A stretch of 62,574 nucleotides of DNA, filler included, from 3 parts of 3 records of this genome joined end to end with filler, not necessarily neighbours in it, one strand, 5' to 3'. Shown: positions 1-12,295, numbered from the whole stretch's first letter. Notes: a model not told the origin generated them from the letters alone. Translations and numbers: made by a program.

Positions 1-2
1 CC

Positions 3-30
3 GTTTCGGGGAAGAATTCTTCCCCGAAAC
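3..30. terminator. Perfect 28-bp palindrome, probable terminator hairpin
   Basis: GTTTCGGGGAAG-AATT-CTTCCCCGAAAC, 54 nt downstream of the last gene of the minus-strand operon; any U-tract would be cut off by the window edge. Confidence 0.55.
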
Positions 31-84
31 AGACCACTTTAATGATAATTTTATGAATTTAGCGATATACTAAAATGGGTAAGG

Positions 85-978
85 CTACAATTGTTCAGGC
101 ACTATGACGGTCAAGGCTTTCTTTTCAATACCGATGAAAATGGTATTGTCCTCCACGGCATGGAACTCCCCATCAATCTGGGAATCAAAATGGGTACCTG
201 GGAGAGTTGACAGAGCTAGGGTCGTAGTTTGAAAATACCTTGCCTCCTTGAGCAAGTGCGGCCGGTTCATCAAGAGCAAGACACCCAACACCAACATTTT
301 GACCCTGTTGACCTTGGTAACGACCAACACATCCAAAAGTCCGTCCTGCAAGGATGCTTGGGGTGTAAGGCTCAGATGGTACCCCATCACATTGGTATTG
401 GAAACAAACACCAAAAAGGGGGTCGTCTTCCATTTCCTGCCATTCGCCTTTATTTCGATCTCCTGGGGTTTCGTCAATTGCTTTAAGGAGGTTATGCACG
501 CAGCCAGATACCCAGATAGGGTACGCCTATTGGACGATTCGTAATTCTTGATGACACTGGCATCAAAACCAACTCCCGTATTACTGAAAAAAAAGCGACC
601 GTTCATCCGCCCCACATCAATTTTGGTCATATGGGCATTCCGCAAAAGTCCCAGTGCCTCACACAAGTTCTTAGGGATATCGAGGTTGGAAGCCAAACCA
701 TTTCCGGAACCAAAAGGTATGATGCCCAAGGGGATGTTGGTTCCCACAAGACAGGAAGCCACCTCGTTTATGGTCCCATCTCCGCCGCAGGCCACTATAA
801 TATGGGCTCCTTCGTGCAAGGAAGCCTTGGTCAATTCCGTGGCATGCCCTGGATAATTGGAAATTTTAAGACATAAATCAAAGTGTTTCGCCTCAAAATA
901 CTGCGACAACAATACTTCGTTGATCGTGGAGTCGCCCTTGCCTGCAATGGGATTTACAATAAAATGGACATTCTTCAT
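85..978 (-). CDS. Diacylglycerol/lipid kinase family protein (DgkB/YegS-like)
   Basis: Motifs IVNPIAG, ACGGDGTINEV, PFGSGNGLA, QIDGE. Confidence 0.9.
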   Translation of the reverse strand: MKNVHFIVNPIAGKGDSTINEVLLSQYFEAKHFDLCLKISNYPGHATELTKASLHEGAHIIVACGGDGTINEVASCLVGTNIPLGIIPFGSGNGLASNLDIPKNLCEALGLLRNAHMTKIDVGRMNGRFFFSNTGVGFDASVIKNYESSNRRTLSGYLAACITSLKQLTKPQEIEIKANGRKWKTTPFLVFVSNTNVMGYHLSLTPQASLQDGLLDVLVVTKVNRVKMLVLGVLLLMNRPHLLKEARYFQTTTLALSTLPGTHFDSQIDGEFHAVEDNTIFIGIEKKALTVIVPEQL

Positions 979-2942
979 AGGTTTACTTTTAGATCCAGCC
1001 CATTATGGTTGTAGAGGTAATCGGCAAGTTGGTAATAGGAAATGGTCTCGTTTAAAAACGCAGTGTCCATTGGTTCTTTCGATAGGCTGTTATTTTTTTT
1101 GTCCCAGTTATATTGATTGGCGGTCTTTCCATCGCCCAACACCATCAATTCATCCTTCTTTAATAGGCCCAATTTTCTGTAATTGCCCACAAATGCACGT
1201 TGGTCTTCTGGTTTCATACTGAACACATCGCGACCAAAAAAATTGTTTTTATAGTTCCAGCCCAACAAGGAGAAGAGCGTTGGCATCACATCTATCTGGG
1301 AACATTGCCGGGTAATCTTATATCCTTTACCCCCTTCCAGATTTACAATAATGGCAGGGATGTGATAGTTGTCCACATCCAATTCCCACTTTCCTGCACT
1401 GCTTGCACAATGGTCTGCCATAATCACAATCACCGTGTTGTTATACCACGATTTGGCCTTGGCCTGTCTTAAGAATTGACCAATGGCGAAATCGGTATAT
1501 TTTACGGCCCCACTTCGCGATGTGCCCGAGGGGATATCGATTTTACCTTCTGGGTAGGTATAGGGTTTATGGTTGGATGTGGTCATGACAAAATCAAAAA
1601 AGGGAGTGCCCTGCTCTACAGATTTGTCCGCTTCATTCAAAACCTTATTGAAAATATCCTCATCACAAACGCCCCAAGCATTTTCAAAAGTGACCTCATC
1701 ATCTTCAATGTTTTTGCGTGAAGTGACAATATCCCGAGAGGGTAAAAATCCACGTCCTCGGTCCACAATGTCAAACCCATTACCACTGAAGAACTTGTCC
1801 ATATTGTCAAAATACCCATCGCCGCCATAAAAAAAGGTTCTACTGTACCCCTTTTCTTTGAAAACCTCACCGATGGTGAACAGGTTTTGGTTATGCTTGC
1901 GTTTTACAATGCTCCTGCCCGGAGTTGGGGGAATGCTCAAGGTAATGGCCTCCATGCCCCTCACGGTACGGGTGCCGGTGGCATACAGGTTAGAGAAATA
2001 GGTCTCCGCCTGTGCAATGGAATCCAAATTTGGGGTCAGCTGTTTTTTATTTCCGAAAATGCCCAGATAGTTGGCACTCAAACTCTCCACACAAATCAAG
2101 ATGATATTCGGTTTTTTTTCAACACCCCCTTTTATGGCGCGAAGAATATTGTCTTCGGGTTCCAGCAGACTGTCCAAAGGACCTGTTACCTGCTTTTGCA
2201 CCTTGTTAAGGGCTTCTTTTTCAGAAATGGTTTTGTAAAAATCGGTGTAGCTGAGCTCATTGTTCCGAAACGCTGCGAAGAAGGAATATATCCCTGCTTT
2301 CGAAAGCTCATTGTTATATCTGTTTTCTGAGGTTTCTGCAGAATCGTTATCAATGGAAGCGGTATAAAACGATACAACCAAAATAGCCGCCAAAAAAGGA
2401 ACCAACTTCACTTGAAATCCATCATGTGCCGAAAATACCTTTTTGAAAAACCCTTTACGTGCGAAAAGCCAAACTGTCGTTGTAACTAAAATGACCATAC
2501 CACCGATCAAAAGTGGTAAGGGATAGGATTCGTTAATGTTTTTGACCACTTCGTAGGTGTAGATGAGGTAATCCACCGCAATAAAATTGAACCGTCTTTG
2601 GAATTCATCCCAAAAGGTGATTTCGGCAAAAAAGGAAAAGTAAACAACGAGCAATGCCAGGGAGAACCCAAAGTAGACCAAGATTCTATCCAACAAAGAA
2701 CCATAAAACCGTTTGGGAAAGAACAAAAAATACAGGGAGGCCACTACGTAGAAAAATGACACTGTACCCAAATCAAAAAACAATCCTGTAAAAAATATCT
2801 TCAGCAAACTAAATAGGGAGTGTTCCACTTCCGTAAAATCCAGGATCAGAAAAGATAGTCGTATCAAAAATGACAGTGCCAAAAAAAGAAGGGCAAAGGC
2901 ATTGATCAGGGCGTAACGCGAGGGAAATAGTTTTAACTTCAT
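975..2942 (-). CDS. LTA-synthase family membrane sulfatase / phosphoglycerol transferase
   Basis: Five N-terminal TM segments, then an alkaline-phosphatase-fold domain (PNIILICVES, ATGTRTVRG, TTSNH, YTD, ADH). Confidence 0.85.
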   Translation of the reverse strand: MKLKLFPSRYALINAFALLFLALSFLIRLSFLILDFTEVEHSLFSLLKIFFTGLFFDLGTVSFFYVVASLYFLFFPKRFYGSLLDRILVYFGFSLALLVVYFSFFAEITFWDEFQRRFNFIAVDYLIYTYEVVKNINESYPLPLLIGGMVILVTTTVWLFARKGFFKKVFSAHDGFQVKLVPFLAAILVVSFYTASIDNDSAETSENRYNNELSKAGIYSFFAAFRNNELSYTDFYKTISEKEALNKVQKQVTGPLDSLLEPEDNILRAIKGGVEKKPNIILICVESLSANYLGIFGNKKQLTPNLDSIAQAETYFSNLYATGTRTVRGMEAITLSIPPTPGRSIVKRKHNQNLFTIGEVFKEKGYSRTFFYGGDGYFDNMDKFFSGNGFDIVDRGRGFLPSRDIVTSRKNIEDDEVTFENAWGVCDEDIFNKVLNEADKSVEQGTPFFDFVMTTSNHKPYTYPEGKIDIPSGTSRSGAVKYTDFAIGQFLRQAKAKSWYNNTVIVIMADHCASSAGKWELDVDNYHIPAIIVNLEGGKGYKITRQCSQIDVMPTLFSLLGWNYKNNFFGRDVFSMKPEDQRAFVGNYRKLGLLKKDELMVLGDGKTANQYNWDKKNNSLSKEPMDTAFLNETISYYQLADYLYNHNGLDLKVNL

Positions 2943-2995
2943 GGGTATTCCAATTAATTCAATATGTAAATGAGCTTTGTTTTATAGCTTACTCT

Positions 2996-4489
2996 CTAAT
3001 TCATTTCAAATTTGAATCCGAGACCAAAATAGTTGGCCTTTAGGCCCGTGGTCCGGTGGTAGTTGTTGTACTTCACATCAATGCTCTTCAATCCAAATCC
3101 CAAGGTCTTGAATTGGGTAAAAATGTCCGTATACGTGATTCCAAAACCAATCTGATGGGCGTCGTAAGCCGAAAGATCATAGTCTGAGGTATAATATTGA
3201 CTTGTGGACAAATGCTCATCAAAAGGAGCGAAATAATCTATCTGGTTCTGGGTGTAATAGCGATAGGATGGATAGAAGGTAAAATTCTGCCCTACTTTCA
3301 CCGGGATTTCCACACTCGCTGTATGCGACTGCAATCCCCAGTCATCAAAATAGTAGCGATAATAGGTGCGAACCGTCAAAATCTCATTGATATAATGATT
3401 CAAACGGATGCCCACGGGTATTTTGAACCGGGTATCGGGCAGTCGTTCCATATCATCGGCCAACATAAACACATCCCTGTTCTCTGCAGAGGTGTAGAAC
3501 GGAATACTGGCAGGATTTCCAATAAAATAGTTGGGTACATCGGCAAAATAGACCCGCTGCATGGGGTTAGAGAGCCATCCCTGCTGTTGGACCACATCGG
3601 CGAAGATTGAAATTTGGGTGTTCTTGCCCAATATCTGCGACAAAGAGACCGACAATGCGAAACTGTTCCGCTTTTTGTCCGAAATCAAACTGAAATTCTC
3701 CACAGGACGCCAAGTCAATGAACCACTCTTATTGGTAACCAATCCATTTCTATTCAAAATATCCACTCCAGAAAAGAAGCCGGCGTTCAAATTGCCATCC
3801 ACTTCCACATAGCTGTCCAATTCAGTAGGGTATCTAGGATTCCATTGGTCCAAAAACACACTACCCTTGAGGCTTAGCTCCGTATTTTTTTCGTTGAAAA
3901 GTCGCGTATACCCTCCACCAAAACCAATGGAGGTATAATCATACTCCGTGGCAAAAGACACATTGCCACTCACTATTTGATCACGGTCTTCCGAACTATG
4001 GGAATACCCAATATTAACACTGCCCCAAGTATCCTGTCGGGATGCGCCGGAAGAGGCCACCCACGGACTTCCAATAGCACCGGAATAGCTTCCTCCATTG
4101 TTGTCGTCATCCTCTTCGTCGTCGTCATCTCCGCCACCACCTCCACCGCCACCGCTGGAAGCTCCGCTTAAACCACCGGAACCAGTTACGTCAAACGGGT
4201 TTAAATTGCTGGAAGAGGCAGAAGTGTATGTTGAAATGCCCACATCTACACTCAGCACATCGTCGTCATTTAATGGAACGCTCACCACAATGGATGGTGC
4301 CACATCCGTAAGCCGCTCATTTCCGATACCACCGGTAACGGATGCATTGTTTCCAGTTTGTTCATAGTAACTGGAGAGGATATCCACTTCGGTGGTTTCC
4401 AAGACCCGTTTTTTATAGGAGTTGACATTTTCCTGTTGGGCCATCCCAAGCATTGGGATACATAAAAGTATTAGCCAAAATCTATTCAT
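2996..4489 (-). CDS. DUF3570-type outer-membrane protein, putative flavinylation substrate
   Basis: Start reassigned to MNRFWLILLC (signal peptide). Contains TSAS/SGAS motifs, ERLPDTR and a beta-barrel-like aromatic C-terminus; context apbE-DUF4266. Confidence 0.75.
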   Translation of the reverse strand: MNRFWLILLCIPMLGMAQQENVNSYKKRVLETTEVDILSSYYEQTGNNASVTGGIGNERLTDVAPSIVVSVPLNDDDVLSVDVGISTYTSASSSNLNPFDVTGSGGLSGASSGGGGGGGGDDDDEEDDDNNGGSYSGAIGSPWVASSGASRQDTWGSVNIGYSHSSEDRDQIVSGNVSFATEYDYTSIGFGGGYTRLFNEKNTELSLKGSVFLDQWNPRYPTELDSYVEVDGNLNAGFFSGVDILNRNGLVTNKSGSLTWRPVENFSLISDKKRNSFALSVSLSQILGKNTQISIFADVVQQQGWLSNPMQRVYFADVPNYFIGNPASIPFYTSAENRDVFMLADDMERLPDTRFKIPVGIRLNHYINEILTVRTYYRYYFDDWGLQSHTASVEIPVKVGQNFTFYPSYRYYTQNQIDYFAPFDEHLSTSQYYTSDYDLSAYDAHQIGFGITYTDIFTQFKTLGFGLKSIDVKYNNYHRTTGLKANYFGLGFKFEMN

Positions 4490-4496
4490 GCTCTTG

Positions 4497-4706
4497 TTAA
4501 TTGCAACCACAACCGCCTCCTGTTTTTCCTCCATTTCCGCCAGAAGCACCCTCCCGGTATACTTGATAACTCGTCTCAAATTTTGCCAGTTTCTTATCCG
4601 CCAAAACCATGTCTGGATCATTGATGTTGACCTTTTCATACTCGTGCAGGACCGCACAAGACGACAGGCTTAACAAACTGTATAGGGCAATTGCTATTTT
4701 CTTCAT
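4497..4706 (-). CDS. DUF4266-type small lipoprotein
   Basis: Lipobox LSSC; C-terminal REGASGG...GGGCGCN. Confidence 0.85.
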   Translation of the reverse strand: MKKIAIALYSLLSLSSCAVLHEYEKVNINDPDMVLADKKLAKFETSYQVYREGASGGNGGKTGGGCGCN

Positions 4707-4714
4707 AGTTGGGT

Positions 4715-5746
4715 TTATCTACTTTGGGTTTCCACGCCTTTCAAGGCAATATTTTTGGAAGTGATGATTTTATTATTGTCGTCCACTAGGATACATTCCA
4801 CGCCTTTTAATTGATTCACGAAATCCAAGCCGGTATCCACGCCCATCACAAAAATTGAGGTGGCAAGGGCATCGGCCAATTCAGCATTTGCCGTAAAAAT
4901 GGTGGCGCTCCGCACTCCTTTGCTGGGATAGCCTGTTCTTGGGTCGATGATATGGGTATAGCGTTCCCCGTTTAGAATGACGAACTTCTCATAATTACCA
5001 GATGTCACCACCGCTTGGTCCTTTACCGGCAACCAAGAGAAGACCTTATCCTTGTTGAGCGGGTTTACGATGGCCACCATCCAATCCTTGCCATCGGGTT
5101 GTGCGCCCCACGCATTTAAATCGCCAGAGGCATTGATGATTCCAGAGGCAACCCCATTTTTCACGAGTAATGCCTTGGCCCTATCCGCTGCATATCCCTT
5201 TCCAATGGCTCCGAATCCAATCTTCATGCCTTCATTCTTCAGGAATACGGTCCCATTTTCTTGATTCAAGACAATATTTTGATACCCCACTTTGGCAACG
5301 GATTGCCTTATGGCTTCCTCCGAAGGCATTTTCATGACGGAACCGTCAAATTTCCAGATGCGGTCCATGGAAGCATAGCTGATATCGAATGCCCCTTGGG
5401 TCAATTTTGATATTTTGATGGCCCTTGCAATCAGATTGAAAAGTTCTTGGTCCACTTTCACAGGAGCCACTCCAGCGTTTTGATTGATTTTAGAGGTCTG
5501 CGAATTGGGGTCCCAAGACGAAATCAAGCGCTCAATTCTTGAAATCTCAGCAATCGCCATGTCTAAATAAGCATCGCCCTTGGTTTGATTTTCGGTTACC
5601 ACGGTAAGGTCAAACCGGCTACCCATCAATTTTAGGGTACGCTGAAAGACTTGGAGCTGAGTTCCATCATCAATCCCTTGGGAATACCCAGAAATCACAA
5701 AAAGGAAAAGGGTCGCACTCAATAAAAATCGATTTATCTTAGGCAT
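4715..5746 (-). CDS. apbE: FAD:protein FMN transferase ApbE
   Basis: LMGS, GAFDIS, FGAIGKGYAAD, VTSGNYE, HIIDPRTG, ADALAT. Confidence 0.95.
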   Translation of the reverse strand: MPKINRFLLSATLFLFVISGYSQGIDDGTQLQVFQRTLKLMGSRFDLTVVTENQTKGDAYLDMAIAEISRIERLISSWDPNSQTSKINQNAGVAPVKVDQELFNLIARAIKISKLTQGAFDISYASMDRIWKFDGSVMKMPSEEAIRQSVAKVGYQNIVLNQENGTVFLKNEGMKIGFGAIGKGYAADRAKALLVKNGVASGIINASGDLNAWGAQPDGKDWMVAIVNPLNKDKVFSWLPVKDQAVVTSGNYEKFVILNGERYTHIIDPRTGYPSKGVRSATIFTANAELADALATSIFVMGVDTGLDFVNQLKGVECILVDDNNKIITSKNIALKGVETQSR

Positions 5747-5756
5747 CTTCAGATTA

Positions 5757-6200
5757 TTAGAAGGCGTTCAACTTGTTGAAGTAGGCTTTTGGTGTAGTTT
5801 TTTCATACCCAGCTTCGCCCAACACCTTTCCAGAAGCATCCAACACCACCACAAAAGGGAAGTATCCATTAGGGTTGTATTTGGAAGCCAACATTTTGTT
5901 GTGCTCCTCTTGTGCTTCGGGCAATCTGTTTTTCTGCTTTCTGGGGAAATCGGCCTTGAGCATCACAAATCGGTCCTTGGCCAAATTTTGGAATTCATCG
6001 GTACTCCAAACCTCGCGATCCAACTTAATGCAAGGCGCACACCAGTCAGAACCTTGAAAGACCAAAACAATATTATTATCGTTCTTTTGGGCCAAGTCTT
6101 TGGCCTTTTCAAAATTGATTTGCCACTCTTGGGCCGAAAGATTTTGTATCAGTAAAAAACAGCCTATCATCAAGGCTGTCAACCATTTTTTGCAATGCAT
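5757..6200 (-). CDS. Periplasmic thioredoxin-family protein
   Basis: Signal peptide; FQGSDWCAPC (CxxC) and a cis-Pro YFP loop. Confidence 0.9.
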   Translation of the reverse strand: MHCKKWLTALMIGCFLLIQNLSAQEWQINFEKAKDLAQKNDNNIVLVFQGSDWCAPCIKLDREVWSTDEFQNLAKDRFVMLKADFPRKQKNRLPEAQEEHNKMLASKYNPNGYFPFVVVLDASGKVLGEAGYEKTTPKAYFNKLNAF

Positions 6201-6233
6201 AGTTCAGATGTTAAAATTCTTTTTCATTACTAA

Positions 6234-6260
6234 GACAGGCAAAAAACCATACACCCTATT
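6234..6260 (-). promoter_or_regulatory. Putative ECF sigma promoter for the thioredoxin-apbE operon
   Basis: AATAGGGTG-N13-CTGTC on the minus strand, identical boxes and spacing to 6831-6857. Confidence 0.7.
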
Positions 6261-6310
6261 TTTTCTAATTATTTTTGTGCCTTATAAAATAGTTTCGCCC
6301 TAATCAGCAC

Positions 6311-6832
6311 ATGACAGAGGAAGAACCATCCATTTGCGAGCAAAAAATCTACAATCGAATTTTTCGCACCCATTATGCGGCGGTGACCCGATACATTTAT
6401 TATAAATGTGGCGATCTGCAACAGGCGGAGGACATTGTTCAAAATGTTTTTGTAAAGCTTTGGAAATTGTGTGCCACCGTTTCCTTTTCCAAAGTGAAGG
6501 CGTACCTCTACCGCGCGGCCAACAACTCATTTCTTAATGAAAAAGAGCATGAAAAAATCGTAGTAAAGCACTTAAAAAGTACCAATGCTTCCGTGGACCA
6601 TGAAAGTCCGGAATATTTGATGCAGATGGACGAGTTCCATGAAAAACTGAAGCAGGCCATTGCCTCTTTGCCTCCAAAAGAAAGGGAAGTGTATCTATTG
6701 AGCCGAATAGAAAAGAAAACCTATCCCGAAATTGCCGAAATGACCGGGGTCGGTGTAAAGGCCATTGAACGAAGAATGGGCAAAGCTTTGCTTCAACTCC
6801 GTGAAGTTTTGGGAAAAGAATTAAAATTTTAA
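6311..6832 (+). CDS. ECF RNA polymerase sigma-70 factor
   Basis: AEDIVQNVFVKLW (region 2) and SLPPKEREVY...EIAEMTGV (region 4); upstream of fecR. Confidence 0.92.
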   Translation: MTEEEPSICEQKIYNRIFRTHYAAVTRYIYYKCGDLQQAEDIVQNVFVKLWKLCATVSFSKVKAYLYRAANNSFLNEKEHEKIVVKHLKSTNASVDHESPEYLMQMDEFHEKLKQAIASLPPKEREVYLLSRIEKKTYPEIAEMTGVGVKAIERRMGKALLQLREVLGKELKF

Positions 6833-6857
6833 TAGGGTGAAAAAGAAATCAACTGTC
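6831..6857 (+). promoter_or_regulatory. Putative ECF sigma promoter for fecR-TBDR
   Basis: AATAGGGTG-N13-CTGTC between the sigma stop codon and the fecR start. Confidence 0.7.
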
Positions 6858-6875
6858 CTATAAATAAGAGCGATT

Positions 6876-7796
6876 ATGCCTATGGATGAAAATTACGCCA
6901 ACGAAGATTTTTTGGCCCGATGGATTGCCGGAGCGTTGACTCCGGAGGAACAGGCAGGGTTCGAGGCATCCGATGTCCACAAGCAACTTATGGCTATTGA
7001 TAATGCTGCCAGCTCGCTTAATGGCCCAGACATAGATGTGGAAAAGGCATTGGCTTTGGTGATAGAAAAAAATCAAAACGTCCAAAAAGAATCCAAGGTA
7101 AGACGCTTATGGTGGGTGGCAGCAGCGGCTGCATCCATTGCATTGTTATTTGCCGGGTACACCTATTTCTTCGGATATAAAACCTATTCCACTAGTATTG
7201 GCGAAAAAGAGACCGTACTTCTTGCGGATGGCTCTCTAATTGAGCTAAATGCCAATTCCAAATTATCCTACAAGCGATTTGGTTGGGAGGAAGACCGCAT
7301 CGTGGATTTTGAAGGGGAAGCTTTTTTTGATGTACAACCCGGTGGGGATTTCAAGGTAAGGATCAGCAAAGGAACAGTTTCCGTATTGGGCACCCAATTC
7401 AACGTACGGGACCGGAAAGATTTCAAAGTGCAATGCTATGAAGGTGCCATTATCTTCACGCCATTGACCAAGTCCAACCCCACCGAACTCTCGCAAGGAA
7501 TGATGCTTGAAATTAAAGAAGGTCAAATTCAGCAAACGGAATTTTCTGGTGATGCTCCCGATTGGAAAAAAGGGTATTCATCTTTTGTAGAACAGCCTTT
7601 TTCAACAGTTCTGGAGGAACTTTCCGTTCAATTTCCGGTTACTTTTGAGCTAAACTCCGTGCAAACAGACCGACTTTTCACTGGAAGATTTACGCATAAG
7701 AATCTTGAAAGCGCCCTTAAGGCTACCATGGAACCCATGGGCATCAAATATCATATTTCGGCAGACAAAAGAATTGTTACCTTGTCTGGTGAATAG
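6876..7796 (+). CDS. fecR: FecR-family anti-sigma factor
   Basis: Single TM, LADGSLIELNANS, GEAFFDV, VLGTQFNV, FTGRF. Confidence 0.92.
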   Translation: MPMDENYANEDFLARWIAGALTPEEQAGFEASDVHKQLMAIDNAASSLNGPDIDVEKALALVIEKNQNVQKESKVRRLWWVAAAAASIALLFAGYTYFFGYKTYSTSIGEKETVLLADGSLIELNANSKLSYKRFGWEEDRIVDFEGEAFFDVQPGGDFKVRISKGTVSVLGTQFNVRDRKDFKVQCYEGAIIFTPLTKSNPTELSQGMMLEIKEGQIQQTEFSGDAPDWKKGYSSFVEQPFSTVLEELSVQFPVTFELNSVQTDRLFTGRFTHKNLESALKATMEPMGIKYHISADKRIVTLSGE

Positions 7797-10364
7797 ATGA
7801 GGTACTTTAAAATCCTATTGTCATTACTCTTTTTGGGCATTTCCATGACCTATGCCCAAGAAAATCTATTTTATGAATTTGAGAACACCTCACTCAAAGA
7901 AGTAATTCAGCAATTAGAAGCGGACACCCAACTCAGTTTTTCTTTCGCAGAGGATGTGGTGGACGAAAAAAAGATTACGGTTCAAGTGGACGGACTCACC
8001 TTGTTTGAACTCCTTGCCGTACTCGAAGCACAAACCGGACTTCATTTCGAGAAAATTGAGGGACAGCCCCAAGTCATCGTTACGCCAATTTCAAATTCAA
8101 ATCAAATCTGCATTTCTCTGCTAGACCAAGAAACCCGATTGCCCATTACGGAAAATCAGGTTGTGGTCGACTCAATCTTGGTGCTTGAAACCAATCAAAA
8201 AGGGTTGCTTCAATTTGAAAATACAGAACAATCCAGTTATTTGCTTCACGTTTCGGGTTATGGTTCTGTGAGTGTTCATTCTTCGGAGGATTGCGTCCCG
8301 ATTTATCTTTCTCCCGTCTACAAGCAACTCAAGGAAGTGGTGGTCACTTCCTACATCACCACAGGGATAGACCGAAATCAGGATGGCTCTATCACCCTCA
8401 CCCAAAAACCTTTGGGGCCCATTCCCGGGCAGACCACGCCAGATATTTTACAAAGCATTCAAATGATTCCTGGGGTTTCCAGTTTGGATGAATCAGCTTC
8501 GGAGATTCAAATCCACGGGGGAACTTCAGACCAGAATCTGGTGCTATTTGACCATATTCGGGTGTTCAATTCAGGGTATTTGTATGGGATGTTCTCAAGG
8601 TTCAATCCGTATGCCACCGAAAAGGCGATAATCTACAAAACCGGGACCAGTACTGTTTATGGAGACCGCGTTTCCGGGGTTATTGATATCACTACCGACG
8701 ATACCATCGCCCAAAAGGTTTCCGGAGGGATTGGGATTGATGGCTTGAGTGCGGATGGCTATTTAAAAATACCCTTGTCCCAAAAATCCTCACTGTCGCT
8801 TTTTGCGCGAAATGCCTATCTGGATGTATTTGAAGGACCCACCTATGAAGCCTATGAACGAAAAATTTTCAACAATACCGGCATCATAACCGACAGCCGC
8901 GGCAATCCATTGAATGTGAATACGGATGATGATTACACCTACGAGGACAGTGACAATGACTTTCGGTTCTATGACCTGAATGCCAAGTATGTGTATCAAC
9001 CTTCGCTGAAGGACAAGATTGCCATCAGTGCCCTCATGACCCGAAACCGCACCCAATTTTCCTTTATGAATGATGGAGAAACCAAAAAGGACTCGCTTAC
9101 CACTGGGAATGGTGGGGTGAGTGCCAACTGGACGCATCATACCTCCCCAAACCAAACGGAGGAAATCACTGCCTACTTTTCTTCATATGACTCTTATTAT
9201 AAAAACGAAGAACTCTTGGACAATGAATTGGAGGAGACCAATATTCGTGGTAATAGGATCAGCGATTTTGGCTTGGAACTGAAATCAGATAGAACTTTTA
9301 AGAATGATGACCGATTGAGCTTTGGATACCAACTCTCCAATACCAATTTGGAAATTGACCTGAGTGCCATATCCAACGTTGAACGGGAAAACAACATCAG
9401 TCTCCCCGTACACGAGAGTAATTTTAAAAACGTACTGTTTGGCGAATACACCATTACCAAAGCCAATTCGGGCATCTATAAATTGGGGATTAGGGCGGTG
9501 CATTATGGAAGTTTAGGAAATATCTATCTGGAACCTCGTTTGAATCTGGAACTTCCCATTTCCAAATCTTCGCGGATTCGGGCTGGATTGGAAAGACGGA
9601 ACCAACCCATTTCACAGCTGATTGAATTCAATCAAACTGAACTTCGATTGGACAACAACATTTGGCGGCTTTCGGACGATGTCAATTTTCCGCTTTTACA
9701 AAGTAACCAGATTTCAGCAGGGCTTCTTTTTGATAAAAAGGGATGGACCTTGGATGCGGAAGTTTTCCACAAGCGGCTCACTGGGCTAACCACCTATAGC
9801 CAAGGGTTCAATTTACCCCGGCCAGAACTCAGTGAAGGCAAAAGTCGCATTTTAGGAATGGACTTGCTCGTTAAAAAACGTATCCAAAACTATCGATTTT
9901 GGATGGGCTATTCTTTCAATGATGTCAATTTTACCTTTGATGCGGTTCAAGAAGACAGTTTTTCCGGAAACAATGACATCACCCATAGTTTTCGAATATC
10001 CAACAGCATACAATTCAATGGTTTACAATTATCGTTGGGCTGGCAATACCGCACTGGTCTTCCTGTTACCCTCATTGAAAATTATGATGAAGAGACCCAG
10101 CAAGTCAATTTTGGCCCCTTAAATGCGGGTCGTTTGCCCGATTTTCATCGCTTGGATGCCTCGGTGGTCTATCAGTTTGGATTGGGAGAACGTAACTCCA
10201 GAATGCAATTGGGCTTTTCAGTACTCAACATTTACAATCGTATTGTTCCGCTTTCCATCATTCACCGCACCTCTCAACAAAATGGTGAACTTATTTTGGA
10301 ACAGGTGATCCACAGGCGTTCGTTGGGGCTTACCCCAAACTTTACGTTAAGGGTCTTTTTTTAG
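7797..10364 (+). CDS. TonB-dependent receptor with N-terminal signalling extension
   Basis: Signal peptide, STN-like SLKEVIQQLE..SFSF, plug (DILQSIQMIPGV, GGTSDQNLVLFD), RLPDFHRLD, terminal Phe. Confidence 0.88.
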   Translation: MRYFKILLSLLFLGISMTYAQENLFYEFENTSLKEVIQQLEADTQLSFSFAEDVVDEKKITVQVDGLTLFELLAVLEAQTGLHFEKIEGQPQVIVTPISNSNQICISLLDQETRLPITENQVVVDSILVLETNQKGLLQFENTEQSSYLLHVSGYGSVSVHSSEDCVPIYLSPVYKQLKEVVVTSYITTGIDRNQDGSITLTQKPLGPIPGQTTPDILQSIQMIPGVSSLDESASEIQIHGGTSDQNLVLFDHIRVFNSGYLYGMFSRFNPYATEKAIIYKTGTSTVYGDRVSGVIDITTDDTIAQKVSGGIGIDGLSADGYLKIPLSQKSSLSLFARNAYLDVFEGPTYEAYERKIFNNTGIITDSRGNPLNVNTDDDYTYEDSDNDFRFYDLNAKYVYQPSLKDKIAISALMTRNRTQFSFMNDGETKKDSLTTGNGGVSANWTHHTSPNQTEEITAYFSSYDSYYKNEELLDNELEETNIRGNRISDFGLELKSDRTFKNDDRLSFGYQLSNTNLEIDLSAISNVERENNISLPVHESNFKNVLFGEYTITKANSGIYKLGIRAVHYGSLGNIYLEPRLNLELPISKSSRIRAGLERRNQPISQLIEFNQTELRLDNNIWRLSDDVNFPLLQSNQISAGLLFDKKGWTLDAEVFHKRLTGLTTYSQGFNLPRPELSEGKSRILGMDLLVKKRIQNYRFWMGYSFNDVNFTFDAVQEDSFSGNNDITHSFRISNSIQFNGLQLSLGWQYRTGLPVTLIENYDEETQQVNFGPLNAGRLPDFHRLDASVVYQFGLGERNSRMQLGFSVLNIYNRIVPLSIIHRTSQQNGELILEQVIHRRSLGLTPNFTLRVFF

Positions 10365-10365
10365 G

Positions 10366-10640
10366 CTAATTGCATCTTGTCCCAATGTGCAACTCCCTAT
10401 GAACATTGAGGATTTCCCCATACACGGTATCGAGGTATGCGTTCAAATCCTCCATGATTCTACTGGTCGGGAACGCTTTTCCACGAATTTTGTCCCAATT
10501 GCACACCGGAATGTCCCGCTTGATACTGATTTCTGCACGCTCCTTTTTGACCGTTATGCGAACATATATATCGTATATGCTCGGGTCATTGCGCTTTTTC
10601 CTGACGAAGAAATTGATTCCTAAAGTACTGTCTGTCCCAT
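10366..10640 (-). pseudogene. Truncated Bacteroidota tyrosine integrase (N-terminal arm-binding domain only)
   Basis: STLGINFF...IYVRITVKKERAEISIKR...WD...LNAYLD. The nearest ATG (10640) is out of frame with this sequence; SAM-like and catalytic domains are absent. Confidence 0.75.
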
Positions 10641-10735
10641 GTGGTAATAATTTTAATTGAACAATTGTCATTGGTCAGACTGCCCTTTGACCTCAATCGT
10701 TCATACCTAAAATTACAACAATCAGTGTACCAGTG

Positions 10736-10947
10736 TGCACACCTTATTGCACACCAAAAATATGGTTTCAAATGATATCAGATGGAATCATAAAAAATGA
10801 GAAGCAGTGATAATCATACAATTAACAGTGCTTTGTTTCTGCCTATAAGGCGGTTCGTCGGAATGACTGAACCCCCCATATGGTCGTAAGTTATTGTAAA
10901 CCAGAAACAAGCACTGAAAATTCAGAACCTGCACACCTTATTGCACA
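10736..10947. mobile_element. att-like site: 18-bp direct repeats and an inverted repeat around a tRNA-3'-end-like core
   Basis: TGCACACCTTATTGCACA at 10736-10753 and 10930-10947; IR CAGTGCTTTGTTTCT (10826-10840) / AGAAACAAGCACTG (10903-10916); core CAGTCATTCCGAC on the minus strand at 10857-10869. Confidence 0.6.
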
Positions 10948-11155
10948 TTTATCATGAAAATGAGAATAAGAACATATCCAATAATTATTAAAATTACTGA
11001 ATTCATTTCAAATGAAGGCAAATCCCTTGGAAAATTCGAAAATACCCCAATGCTACATTCTGAAGAAACCACAAGGTCAAACTGAATCTAAGACTAGAAA
11101 TATTCAAATCGATTACTTTTCACCAAACTATTATCCTAACTCTTTTCATGAAGTA

Positions 11156-12295
11156 TTAACCGCCTAAAACACTGCTGAGCTTGAACATCGGAAGGTACAT
11201 GGACACCAAGATCACCCCTACAAATACACCAATAACGACAATGATAAGCGGCTCCATAATAGTAGAAAGCATCTTGGAATTACGCTGCACCTCCATTACA
11301 TATTGTTGGTTCAATTTTTTGAAAATATATTCGGTCTGATTGGTTTCCTCCGCTACCTTGACCAATGATACCATCTTATGGTCAAAGACCTTGTTTCCCT
11401 TTAAACTTTCATGAAGGCTCGTACCTTTCAAGATCCTTTTCTCCATGGTATCCAAAGCGTCTTGTAAGGGATAGAACCCCATCATCTTTTTTGCCATTTG
11501 GACACTGTTCAACATGGGCACTTTGGAAGTGGTCAATAAGGCCACCGCTTGGGTAAACTGTGCCATATAGATCAATCGCAAGAAGTTGCCAAAATATGGG
11601 GCCCTCAGAATAAGATAATCCCGCTTTCTTCGGATGGATTCTTTTCGCATCAAGGGTTTTCTTAACAGAATCAAAACAAGCATCATTAAAAGTACGGCAA
11701 GACCATACTGTTCGATCAGATTGGATATACCAATGATATATTGGGTAATCGTCGGCAGTTCCACATTGTTCTGCCTAAATATGTCCTCGAACATGGGAAC
11801 TACCATCCGAAGCATAAAAATAACTACAAGTATAGCGGTACATAATATGATCAAGGGATAGGTAAGGGCACTTATAAGGTTCCTGCGCTGCTCGTTCTTT
11901 TGGGCAAAGAAGGTCGCCAATTCCTGTAGTATGGTTCCCAGATTGCCGCTTTCTTCCCCTATTTCAACGGAATAGTATTCATATTCCGTAAACTCTCGGC
12001 GTCTTTTCAGCACTTCGGAAAAACTTGATCCACTGTCCAATTCCTTGACCATGTCACCATAAAACAACTGTAGGTTATCCTTTTTTTGGTTCCCTGACAA
12101 TAGTTCAAGGGCTTCTCTCAATTGAAGTCCTGCCTTTAAAAGTATCGCCAGTTCACTATAAAAACCCTCCTTTTTCTTGGAGTTGAAAAAGGAACCGAAA
12201 AGGGTGATCTCCTTTTTTAACCACTTATCCAATCCCTCCTTTTGAGTGGGAACCGTATTCGCTTTTTCCAAGGTCTGGTCCAATTTGAATCCCAT
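11156..12295 (-). CDS. gspF: Type II secretion / type IV pilus platform protein GspF/PilC
   Basis: ELAILLKAG, GEESGNL, ALTYP, MYLPMF; two T2SSF repeats. Confidence 0.92.
   Translation of the reverse strand: MGFKLDQTLEKANTVPTQKEGLDKWLKKEITLFGSFFNSKKKEGFYSELAILLKAGLQLREALELLSGNQKKDNLQLFYGDMVKELDSGSSFSEVLKRRREFTEYEYYSVEIGEESGNLGTILQELATFFAQKNEQRRNLISALTYPLIILCTAILVVIFMLRMVVPMFEDIFRQNNVELPTITQYIIGISNLIEQYGLAVLLMMLVLILLRKPLMRKESIRRKRDYLILRAPYFGNFLRLIYMAQFTQAVALLTTSKVPMLNSVQMAKKMMGFYPLQDALDTMEKRILKGTSLHESLKGNKVFDHKMVSLVKVAEETNQTEYIFKKLNQQYVMEVQRNSKMLSTIMEPLIIVVIGVFVGVILVSMYLPMFKLSSVLGG

Follow-up and report, generated by a model that had tools for sequence, protein, structure and literature searches.

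An extracytoplasmic function sigma factor predicted to read two promoters bracketing its own gene, one of them facing an outer-membrane flavinylation operon, in Flavobacteriaceae

We analyzed a 62,574-nucleotide (nt) stretch of DNA, here called the window, in which 3 parts of 3 records of one genome are joined end to end with filler. Positions 85 to 10364 hold a gene for an extracytoplasmic function (ECF) sigma factor, followed on the same strand by genes for a FecR-type anti-sigma factor and a TonB-dependent receptor, and on the opposite strand a divergent six-gene operon for flavinylation of a predicted outer-membrane protein. We scanned the 11 open reading frames (ORFs) at 85-12295 against Pfam and NCBIfam, which confirmed the gene content named in an earlier reading made from the sequence alone (the sequence-only reading). 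The features of the locus are as follows, in coordinates of the window.

6311..6832, + strand: ECF sigma factor gene, Bacteroidetes FecI-like type (Sigma70_r2, Sigma70_r4_2)
6876..7796, + strand: gene for a FecR-type single-pass anti-sigma factor (FecR, E 9.1e-17; FecR_C, E 1.3e-6)
7797..10364, + strand: gene for a divergent TonB-dependent receptor with an N-terminal signalling-type domain (Plug, E 1.9e-7)
5757..6200, - strand: trx, exported thioredoxin-like protein (Thioredoxin_7, PF13899, E 3e-16; CAPC motif)
4715..5746, - strand: apbE, exported ApbE FAD:protein FMN transferase (PF02424, E 1.7e-86, 290.5 bits)
4497..4706, - strand: DUF4266 small lipoprotein gene, C-terminal CGC (CXC) (PF14086, E 2.1e-18; lipobox-like LSSC)
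2996..4489, - strand: DUF3570 gene, long form, predicted outer-membrane beta-barrel (PF12094, E 8.9e-43, 147.1 bits)
975..2942, - strand: ltaS, LtaS/OpgB-like membrane phosphoglycerol-transferase-type enzyme, sulfatase fold (PF00884, E 1.7e-42, 146.2 bits)
85..978, - strand: dagK, soluble lipid/diacylglycerol kinase, YegS/BmrU/DgkB family (DAGK_cat, PF00781, E 2.5e-28, 98.6 bits)
1..36, - strand: GC-rich hairpin about 50 nt past the dagK stop, read from the sequence; the window ends there
6234..6260, - strand: predicted ECF promoter P(trx), -35 TAGGGTG and -10 CTGTC, exact motif, 33 nt 5' of the trx ATG
6831..6857, + strand: predicted ECF promoter P(fecR), exact motif, overlapping the sigma stop codon, 18 nt 5' of the fecR ATG
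6262..6310, + strand: leader of the sigma gene; TAGTTTCG is a candidate housekeeping-type -7 box, and no ECF motif points toward the sigma gene

The sigma factor has 173 amino acids (aa) and consists of regions 2 and 4 only (Sigma70_r2, E 5.6e-11; Sigma70_r4_2, E 1.5e-15). It scored 79.6 bits against TIGR02937 (sigma70-ECF; cut-off, 42.9) and 121.3 bits against TIGR02985 (Sig70_bacteroi1), just below the cut-off of 126.4. The anti-sigma factor matched FecR at 61.7 bits (cut-off, 24) and FecR_C at 28.8 bits (cut-off, 24.4), and its translation shows one hydrophobic segment near residue 80. The receptor (855 aa, with an aromatic C-terminal residue) matched Plug at 32 bits (cut-off, 23.9); its residues 26-90 form a FecR_C-like module (25.7 bits; cut-off, 24.4), for which the STN score of 21.7 bits lies below the cut-off of 28.4. 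The receptor had no match to a barrel family in Pfam, to an NCBIfam family, or by sequence to the PDB. With FecR next to the sigma gene, the receptor in second place after it, and no SusD, the gene context resembles that described for group ECF239. The absence of susD and glycosidase genes noted in the sequence-only reading held downstream of the receptor, where the next ORFs encode an integrase arm-binding fragment and GspF.

On the other strand, the ApbE protein begins with a hydrophobic signal-like segment, as read from the translation. The best NCBIfam scores of the LtaS/OpgB-like enzyme were 79 bits for OpgB-type phosphoglycerol transferase I (cut-off, 572) and 74.8 bits for LtaS (cut-off, 970), and by sequence these scores establish membership of the superfamily only. 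The dagK product scored 124.7 bits against TIGR00147, above the cut-off of 118.65, and the dagK ORF overlaps the ltaS stop by 4 nt. In all 11 other orthologs from the genus ltaS lies downstream of the DUF3570 gene, and in 5 of them the gap is only 13-16 nt, which implies cotranscription. The hairpin at 1..36 probably ends the six-gene operon. It is also present after dagK in L161, the closest ortholog, and a simple terminator scan did not call the copy in the window. No DsbD was found by Pfam among the 11 ORFs scanned, to which that search was confined. Since 316 published clusters lack a colocated DsbD in the part of the source concerned (PMC8238504), its presence nearby is not obligatory. 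A paralogous sigma/FecR/receptor locus in another genome (L162 in G006, 7298-10254) carries ECF-type motifs in both directions and is followed, after about 540 nt of noncoding DNA, by a DgkA-type kinase gene (PF01219) and then an LtaS-like gene about 50% identical to that of the window. G006 thus pairs this type of transferase with a PF01219 kinase, whereas the window pairs it with a DAGK_cat kinase (PF00781) of a different family.

The long-form DUF3570 protein starts at 4489 with a signal peptide and contains SGAS, a motif of the [ST]GA[ST] type, twice. In a 24-row alignment, three residues of the second motif do not vary (S146, G148, and S150) and two more (S147 and A149) are at least 90% conserved, so that one row may differ at each of these two. 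The first motif lies inside an insert found only in the long form, which is acidic and rich in Gly, Asp, and Glu. Between both motifs, at 3996-4120 of the window (residues ~112-140), a Gly run leads into the Asp/Glu-rich part of the insert; its DNA draws unrelated low-complexity contigs from metatranscriptomes. In an AlphaFold2 model built on the 24 sequences (pLDDT, 75.1; pTM, 0.71), about 20 strands form a barrel; strands 3 and 4 are joined by a stretch of low confidence that holds both SGAS motifs. Foldseek returned 449 PDB matches to the model at an E value of ≤0.001. Every one of the matches listed is to an outer-membrane barrel, among them FadL (E 3.3e-9), Occ porins, OmpG, BcsC, and AlgE, with TM-scores of only 0.26-0.41. 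The model therefore predicts an outer-membrane beta-barrel of no specific barrel family. Flavinylation of a DUF3570 protein by ApbE at two [S/T]GA[S/T] motifs has been described, with covalent FMN shown for the Chlorobium luteolum homolog only, in the part of that report concerned (PMC8238504). Clusters of ApbE, DUF3570, PF13899 thioredoxin, and DUF4266 (CXC), with or without DsbD and of unknown function, are presented in the same portion (Meheust et al. 2021, eLife, PMC8238504). The window matches this published set, and its DUF3570 protein models as an outer-membrane barrel, so the description of the locus as an outer-membrane flavinylation operon is supported.

The two predicted promoters are exact copies of one bipartite motif. 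A pattern search of the whole window found AATAGGGTG-N13-CTGTC at 6831-6857 (+) and 6234-6260 (-), so that the identical spacing reported by the sequence-only reading is exact at both places. In a 4.4-Mb genome that served as a stand-in (G001, which matches the locus at 100% identity across 3301 bases), the only two exact copies both flank the sigma gene. With up to 2 mismatches, this genome had 31 matches, against 12 for the reversed control. Shuffles of the window had a mean of 0.34 matches at the same tolerance, and 3 matches were reached in 1 of 100 shuffles. When the two intergenic stretches (110 and 55 nt) were compared in mononucleotide shuffles, a shared two-block match of at least 14 nt arose in 16 of 2000. 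Their best ungapped 27-nt similarity (18/27) was reached in 160 of 2000 shuffles, was not significant, and was set aside. A two-mismatch copy lies on the opposite strand within fecR (7373-7399, -); close orthologs have a related TTGGGT...GGTT string at the same place in fecR, probably reflecting coding constraint. The TAGTTTCG box in the leader of the sigma gene is conserved in the ortholog alignment. We would assign it to sigma-A from the published Bacteroidetes promoter consensus TAnnTTTG, as given in the portion of the source concerned (PMC7366714).

We compared the locus across 61 genomes of the genus and across 151 genomes of the Flavobacteriaceae, one per genus. An ortholog of the sigma factor, defined within the genus by at least 80% identity, is present in 12 of the 61 genus genomes. 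Together with G025, a genome of another genus from the 151-genome set (sigma identity, 66%), these give 13 orthologous loci; gene order was read at length in 11 further genus orthologs besides the window. At all 13 loci, trx-apbE is divergent from the sigma gene and both motif sites are present. The invariant parts are TAGGGTG and CTGTCT on the trx side and AATAGGGT and CTGTC on the fecR side, with a spacer that varies freely; the base that follows TAGGGT on the fecR side is G or A within the clade. Conservation of the motif at orthologous loci, proposed as a check in the sequence-only reading, was thus found at both sites. The nine-gene order including ltaS-dagK is intact in all 11 further orthologs, and G025 has trx-apbE-DUF4266-DUF3570 without ltaS-dagK.

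The predicted regulon is local. In five further genomes, TAGGGT-N14-CTGTC had 22 matches, compared with 4 in the reversed control. Of these, 10 belong to the locus and are intergenic; each of the remaining 12 falls within an open frame of at least 100 aa, so that the search of these five genomes for a third regulon member gave only intragenic matches beyond the locus. Likewise, two other TAGGGTG...TGTC matches in G001 overlap long ORFs on the same strand, and the looser TAGGGT-N15-TGTY showed no enrichment across G001 (23 matches, 26 in the control).

The flavinylation operon beside this signalling unit is an accessory copy. A short-form DUF3570 gene, at about 55% identity, is present in 61 of the 61 genus genomes. 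The long form occurs in 13, and the sigma factor was found in 12 of these 13 and in 0 of the other 48. We conclude that the ECF-linked operon is a second, long-form copy beside the core copy. In G001 the core trx-apbE-DUF3570 copy (L102, G001:C20) sits behind a Rieske [2Fe-2S] gene, and its short-form DUF3570 has a single motif, SGES, which is not of the [ST]GA[ST] type, so this protein may not be flavinylated. In the family set of 151 genomes, 53 carry DUF3570. At 20 DUF3570 loci outside the genus, an ECF-type motif directly precedes trx in 4 (G025, G146, G007, and G079 [CGTT]), of which only G025 has the sigma gene next to it. In four other genera (L092, L096, L097, and L100), a palindrome, TGTAAC-N4-GTTACA, lies upstream of trx at the place of the ECF promoter and suggests a dimeric regulator of the same flavinylation operon there.

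To the right of the receptor the window departs from its relatives. The integrase arm-binding fragment abuts the receptor stop (10366-10671 and onward), and no match to this flank was found at any of the 11 orthologous loci. At 3 of the 11 (L151, L152, and L161, the loci with the highest sigma identity to the window), the receptor is followed by a DUF6799 gene and a gene for a 301-aa protein, both unmatched in the window. The GspF/PilC-type platform protein (type II secretion or type IV pilus) at 11156-12295 (-) is unrelated to the finding.

The paired sites recur well beyond the clade of the window. We collected 51 sigma loci related to that of the window (L023-L052 and L130-L150), of which the family search supplied 30 and the genus search 21; they are not independent and group into 18 clusters when 75% sigma identity is the threshold. 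TAGGGT-N15-TGTY stands without a mismatch in the gap between sigma gene and fecR at 41 of the 51 loci, and a perfect divergent one upstream of the sigma gene at 37. By our own arithmetic, 10,000 stretches of 200 nt would be expected to yield about 4 perfect matches. The divergent copy mostly lies 25-33 nt ahead of the ATG of the gene that it faces, the cargo; the 33 nt of P(trx) falls inside this common range. The variants of the motif (TGTC, TGTT, GGTT, and GGAT) agree across both flanks of a locus: TGTC in the clade of the window and in L038, L047, and L049; GGTT with TTGGGT in L141 and L143; GGAT in L037; and TGTT elsewhere. We tested this covariation with a single locus to represent every sigma cluster in which a fecR-side motif is present (16 clusters). 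At the tested loci, the upstream region matched the fecR-side core of its own locus more closely than those of the other clusters (rank sum, 32, with 120 expected; reached in 0 of 20,000 permutations). Such agreement is as expected if the sigma factor encoded between both sites reads both.

The genes faced by the divergent sites differ. Among the loci compared, the flavinylation operon is the divergent cargo only in the clade of the window. Outside it, 19 cargo proteins comprised 5 transglutaminase-7TM proteins, 1 DUF6438 protein, 1 metallopeptidase-like lipoprotein (whole-protein score, 24.1 bits, below the Pfam cut-off of 25.6), and 12 without a Pfam family above cut-off, two of which have sub-threshold GBD_Tenm3 matches only. 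Several of these 12 have lipoprotein-like N-termini. A second sigma gene in G001 itself, beside G001:C2, has TAGGGT...TTGTT on both sides. We conclude that the twin-promoter layout, as read from sequence, is a general design of this sigma family in Flavobacteriaceae and is not special to the locus of the window.

For the locus itself, we consider it quite probable that the sigma factor reads both promoters that bracket its gene, driving fecR and the receptor gene in one direction and trx-apbE-DUF4266-DUF3570-ltaS-dagK in the other, so that the signalling unit and the flavin operon would be controlled together. That one sigma factor controls both transcripts was the central proposal of the sequence-only reading. 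It now has behind it the conservation of the sites at 13 of 13 loci and their covariation over 16 groups; what it says beyond this comparison stays a prediction from sequence. Several observations weigh against it. Within the window by itself the motif pair is only moderately beyond chance (the 16 of 2000 shuffles above), so the weight of the case rests on conservation. The canonical -35 element of ECF promoters is GGAAC, and TAGGGT is unlike it. In G055, a sigma factor 64% identical to that of the window faces an Acyl_transf_3 gene, and the cargo is thus exchangeable. Paralogous sigma factors with nearly the same motif coexist in one genome, and cross talk is possible. One genus genome (G164, 75% complete) has the long-form DUF3570 gene with no sigma factor detected, and an ECF-type motif ahead of trx is missing from 16 of the 20 DUF3570 loci outside the genus. 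Finally, the 12 genus orthologs are possibly one clade, in which case their co-occurrence may count one event. The flanks of the locus are common to 8 and 7 of the 11 orthologs, and co-occurrence may accordingly reflect one clade and not repeated gain. On the same sharing of flanks, the idea that the locus is a mobile island has no advantage over a single clade-level origin, which fits equally well, and we set it aside.

Assembled metatranscriptome contigs (two runs) bear on the promoters in neither direction. An identical 496-nt contig spans 6477-6970, across the junction of the sigma gene and fecR, and a 271-nt contig lies within apbE. Such contigs give no transcription start, strand, or level, and could come from DNA.

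Two other readings of the sites themselves have to be weighed. They could be ECF promoters that a paralogous ECF sigma factor reads, alone or as well, the adjacent sigma factor then not being the specific regulator of the flavin operon. Many paralogous sigma-fecR loci do share TAGGGT-N15-TGTY, including the second one in G001 with its motif on both sides, and the fecR-side base after TAGGGT shifts between G and A within the clade. Set against this, CTGTC is invariant on both flanks at all 13 clade loci, whereas most paralogs have TGTT, and the permutation test ties each divergent site more closely to its own fecR-side partner than to those of other groups; we hold this reading to be very unlikely. 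Most improbable, in our judgment, is that the shared motif is no promoter at all and marks the site of a regulator other than a sigma factor or a structural or terminator element. One copy does stand directly behind a stop codon, where terminators sit, and in the window ATAGG and CCTAT could pair around the fecR-side copy. The hairpin was nevertheless rejected, as the pairing is not conserved in the orthologs and the bases after CTGTC vary. Both copies, moreover, are oriented to the downstream gene at the distance typical of the family, and a pair of short blocks that do not vary, set a constant 15 nt apart around a spacer free to change, would be typical of -35/-10 recognition by a sigma factor.

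What the locus is for is a separate question. The FecI/FecR/receptor design classically serves iron carriers, and no SusD or glycosidase gene is present. The locus could thus be one for acquisition of iron or another metal, in which the receptor imports an oxidized metal chelate and the thiol-flavin barrel module reduces or releases the metal. Against it, no iron transporter, siderophore, heme, or Fur-related Pfam family was found in the 11 ORFs at 85-12295, where no search for Fur boxes was made; the receptor has no sequence match to a characterized transporter; and the extension of the operon by ltaS-dagK suggests a role in the chemistry of lipids or the envelope. We think a metal uptake locus unlikely, with iron, another metal, or a redox substrate all still in play; the suggestion of the sequence-only reading that this is not an iron-uptake locus is not established. 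A further, decidedly unlikely suggestion from sequence is that the receptor senses an extracellular redox-active or metal substrate and that the sigma factor installs a dedicated two-flavin barrel, fed by a periplasmic thiol relay, which would move electrons across or into the outer membrane onto that substrate while LtaS and DagK remodel envelope lipid headgroups. If true, this would be a ligand-inducible electron conduit across the outer membrane that uses covalent flavin instead of multiheme cytochromes, in aerobic marine Flavobacteriaceae.

In the model that we favor, in which the adjacent sigma factor reads both bracketing sites, the sigma gene would be transcribed from the housekeeping-type promoter in its leader and would not be autoregulated. 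By analogy with FecI/FecR/FecA, FecR would hold the sigma factor at the inner membrane until a ligand at the TonB-dependent receptor brings about its release. As the comparison supports, the free sigma factor with RNA polymerase would then initiate at the two bipartite sites TAGGGT(G)-N14-CTGTC. P(fecR), located past the sigma stop, would drive fecR and the receptor gene and so provide positive feedback on the sensor, and P(trx) would drive trx-apbE-DUF4266-DUF3570-ltaS-dagK in the opposite direction. ApbE would attach FMN to both SGAS motifs of DUF3570, to which the exported thioredoxin and the CXC lipoprotein DUF4266 would probably pass electrons. The LtaS/OpgB-like headgroup transferase may release diacylglycerol, with the diacylglycerol kinase recycling this lipid by-product; this part of the model draws on G006, where the LtaS-like gene is preceded by a diacylglycerol kinase gene of a different family.

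The locus shares with FecI/FecR/FecA, and with its Bacteroidetes version (ECF239 and ECF240, as described in the portion of PMC7826278 concerned), the order of sigma factor, single-pass FecR-type anti-sigma factor, and receptor, as well as a sigma gene without a cognate promoter in its own direction. It differs from systems of the FecI/FecR/FecA type in that the cognate promoter lies between the sigma gene and fecR, so that the anti-sigma gene would be driven too, and in having a second, opposite cognate promoter toward nontransport cargo and no SusD partner. As given in part of the reference classification, the promoter motifs of ECF240 are not conserved and that of ECF239 is different (Casas-Pastor et al. 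2021, PMC7826278). That classification searched upstream of the sigma gene and for this reason reported no conserved promoter motif for this Bacteroidetes group, and TAGGGT-N15-TGTY does not appear in the portions of its supplementary text covered here. Other sources, each as far as the portion concerned goes, give no known ECF motif for B. thetaiotaomicron (Ryan et al. 2020, PMC7366714), only a CGT-box ECF motif in a study of F. psychrophilum transcription start sites (TSS; PMC9723704), and no motif for FecR-linked sigma factors in a paper on dCas12f-sigma (PMC13472631). The published flavinylation clusters and the window have in common, in the parts of PMC8238504 compared, four adjacent families, two [S/T]GA[S/T] motifs, the CXC end, and PF13899. 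The window differs from them in having a second, long-form copy with an insert, an ltaS-dagK extension within the genus, and no DsbD in the locus. The words "sigma" and "FecR" occur nowhere in the main text of that paper (its supplementary tables were outside this search), so that, compared with that text, the regulatory link is new. Our search of the literature on DUF3570, DUF4266, ApbE with FecR, TAGGGT and sigma factors, and ECF factors and TSS in Flavobacteria found neither the twin-promoter rule nor a link between ECF sigma factors and DUF3570.

We conclude that the locus in the window is one instance, with a new cargo, of a general design, and that the predicted wiring is well supported by comparison. 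DUF3570 flavinylation was shown in 2021, and a sigma/anti-sigma switch beside a second copy would provide an experimental on-switch for this orphan system. More widely, the TAGGGT-N15-TGTY rule would let the local regulons of many sigma systems in marine Flavobacteriaceae be read from sequence.

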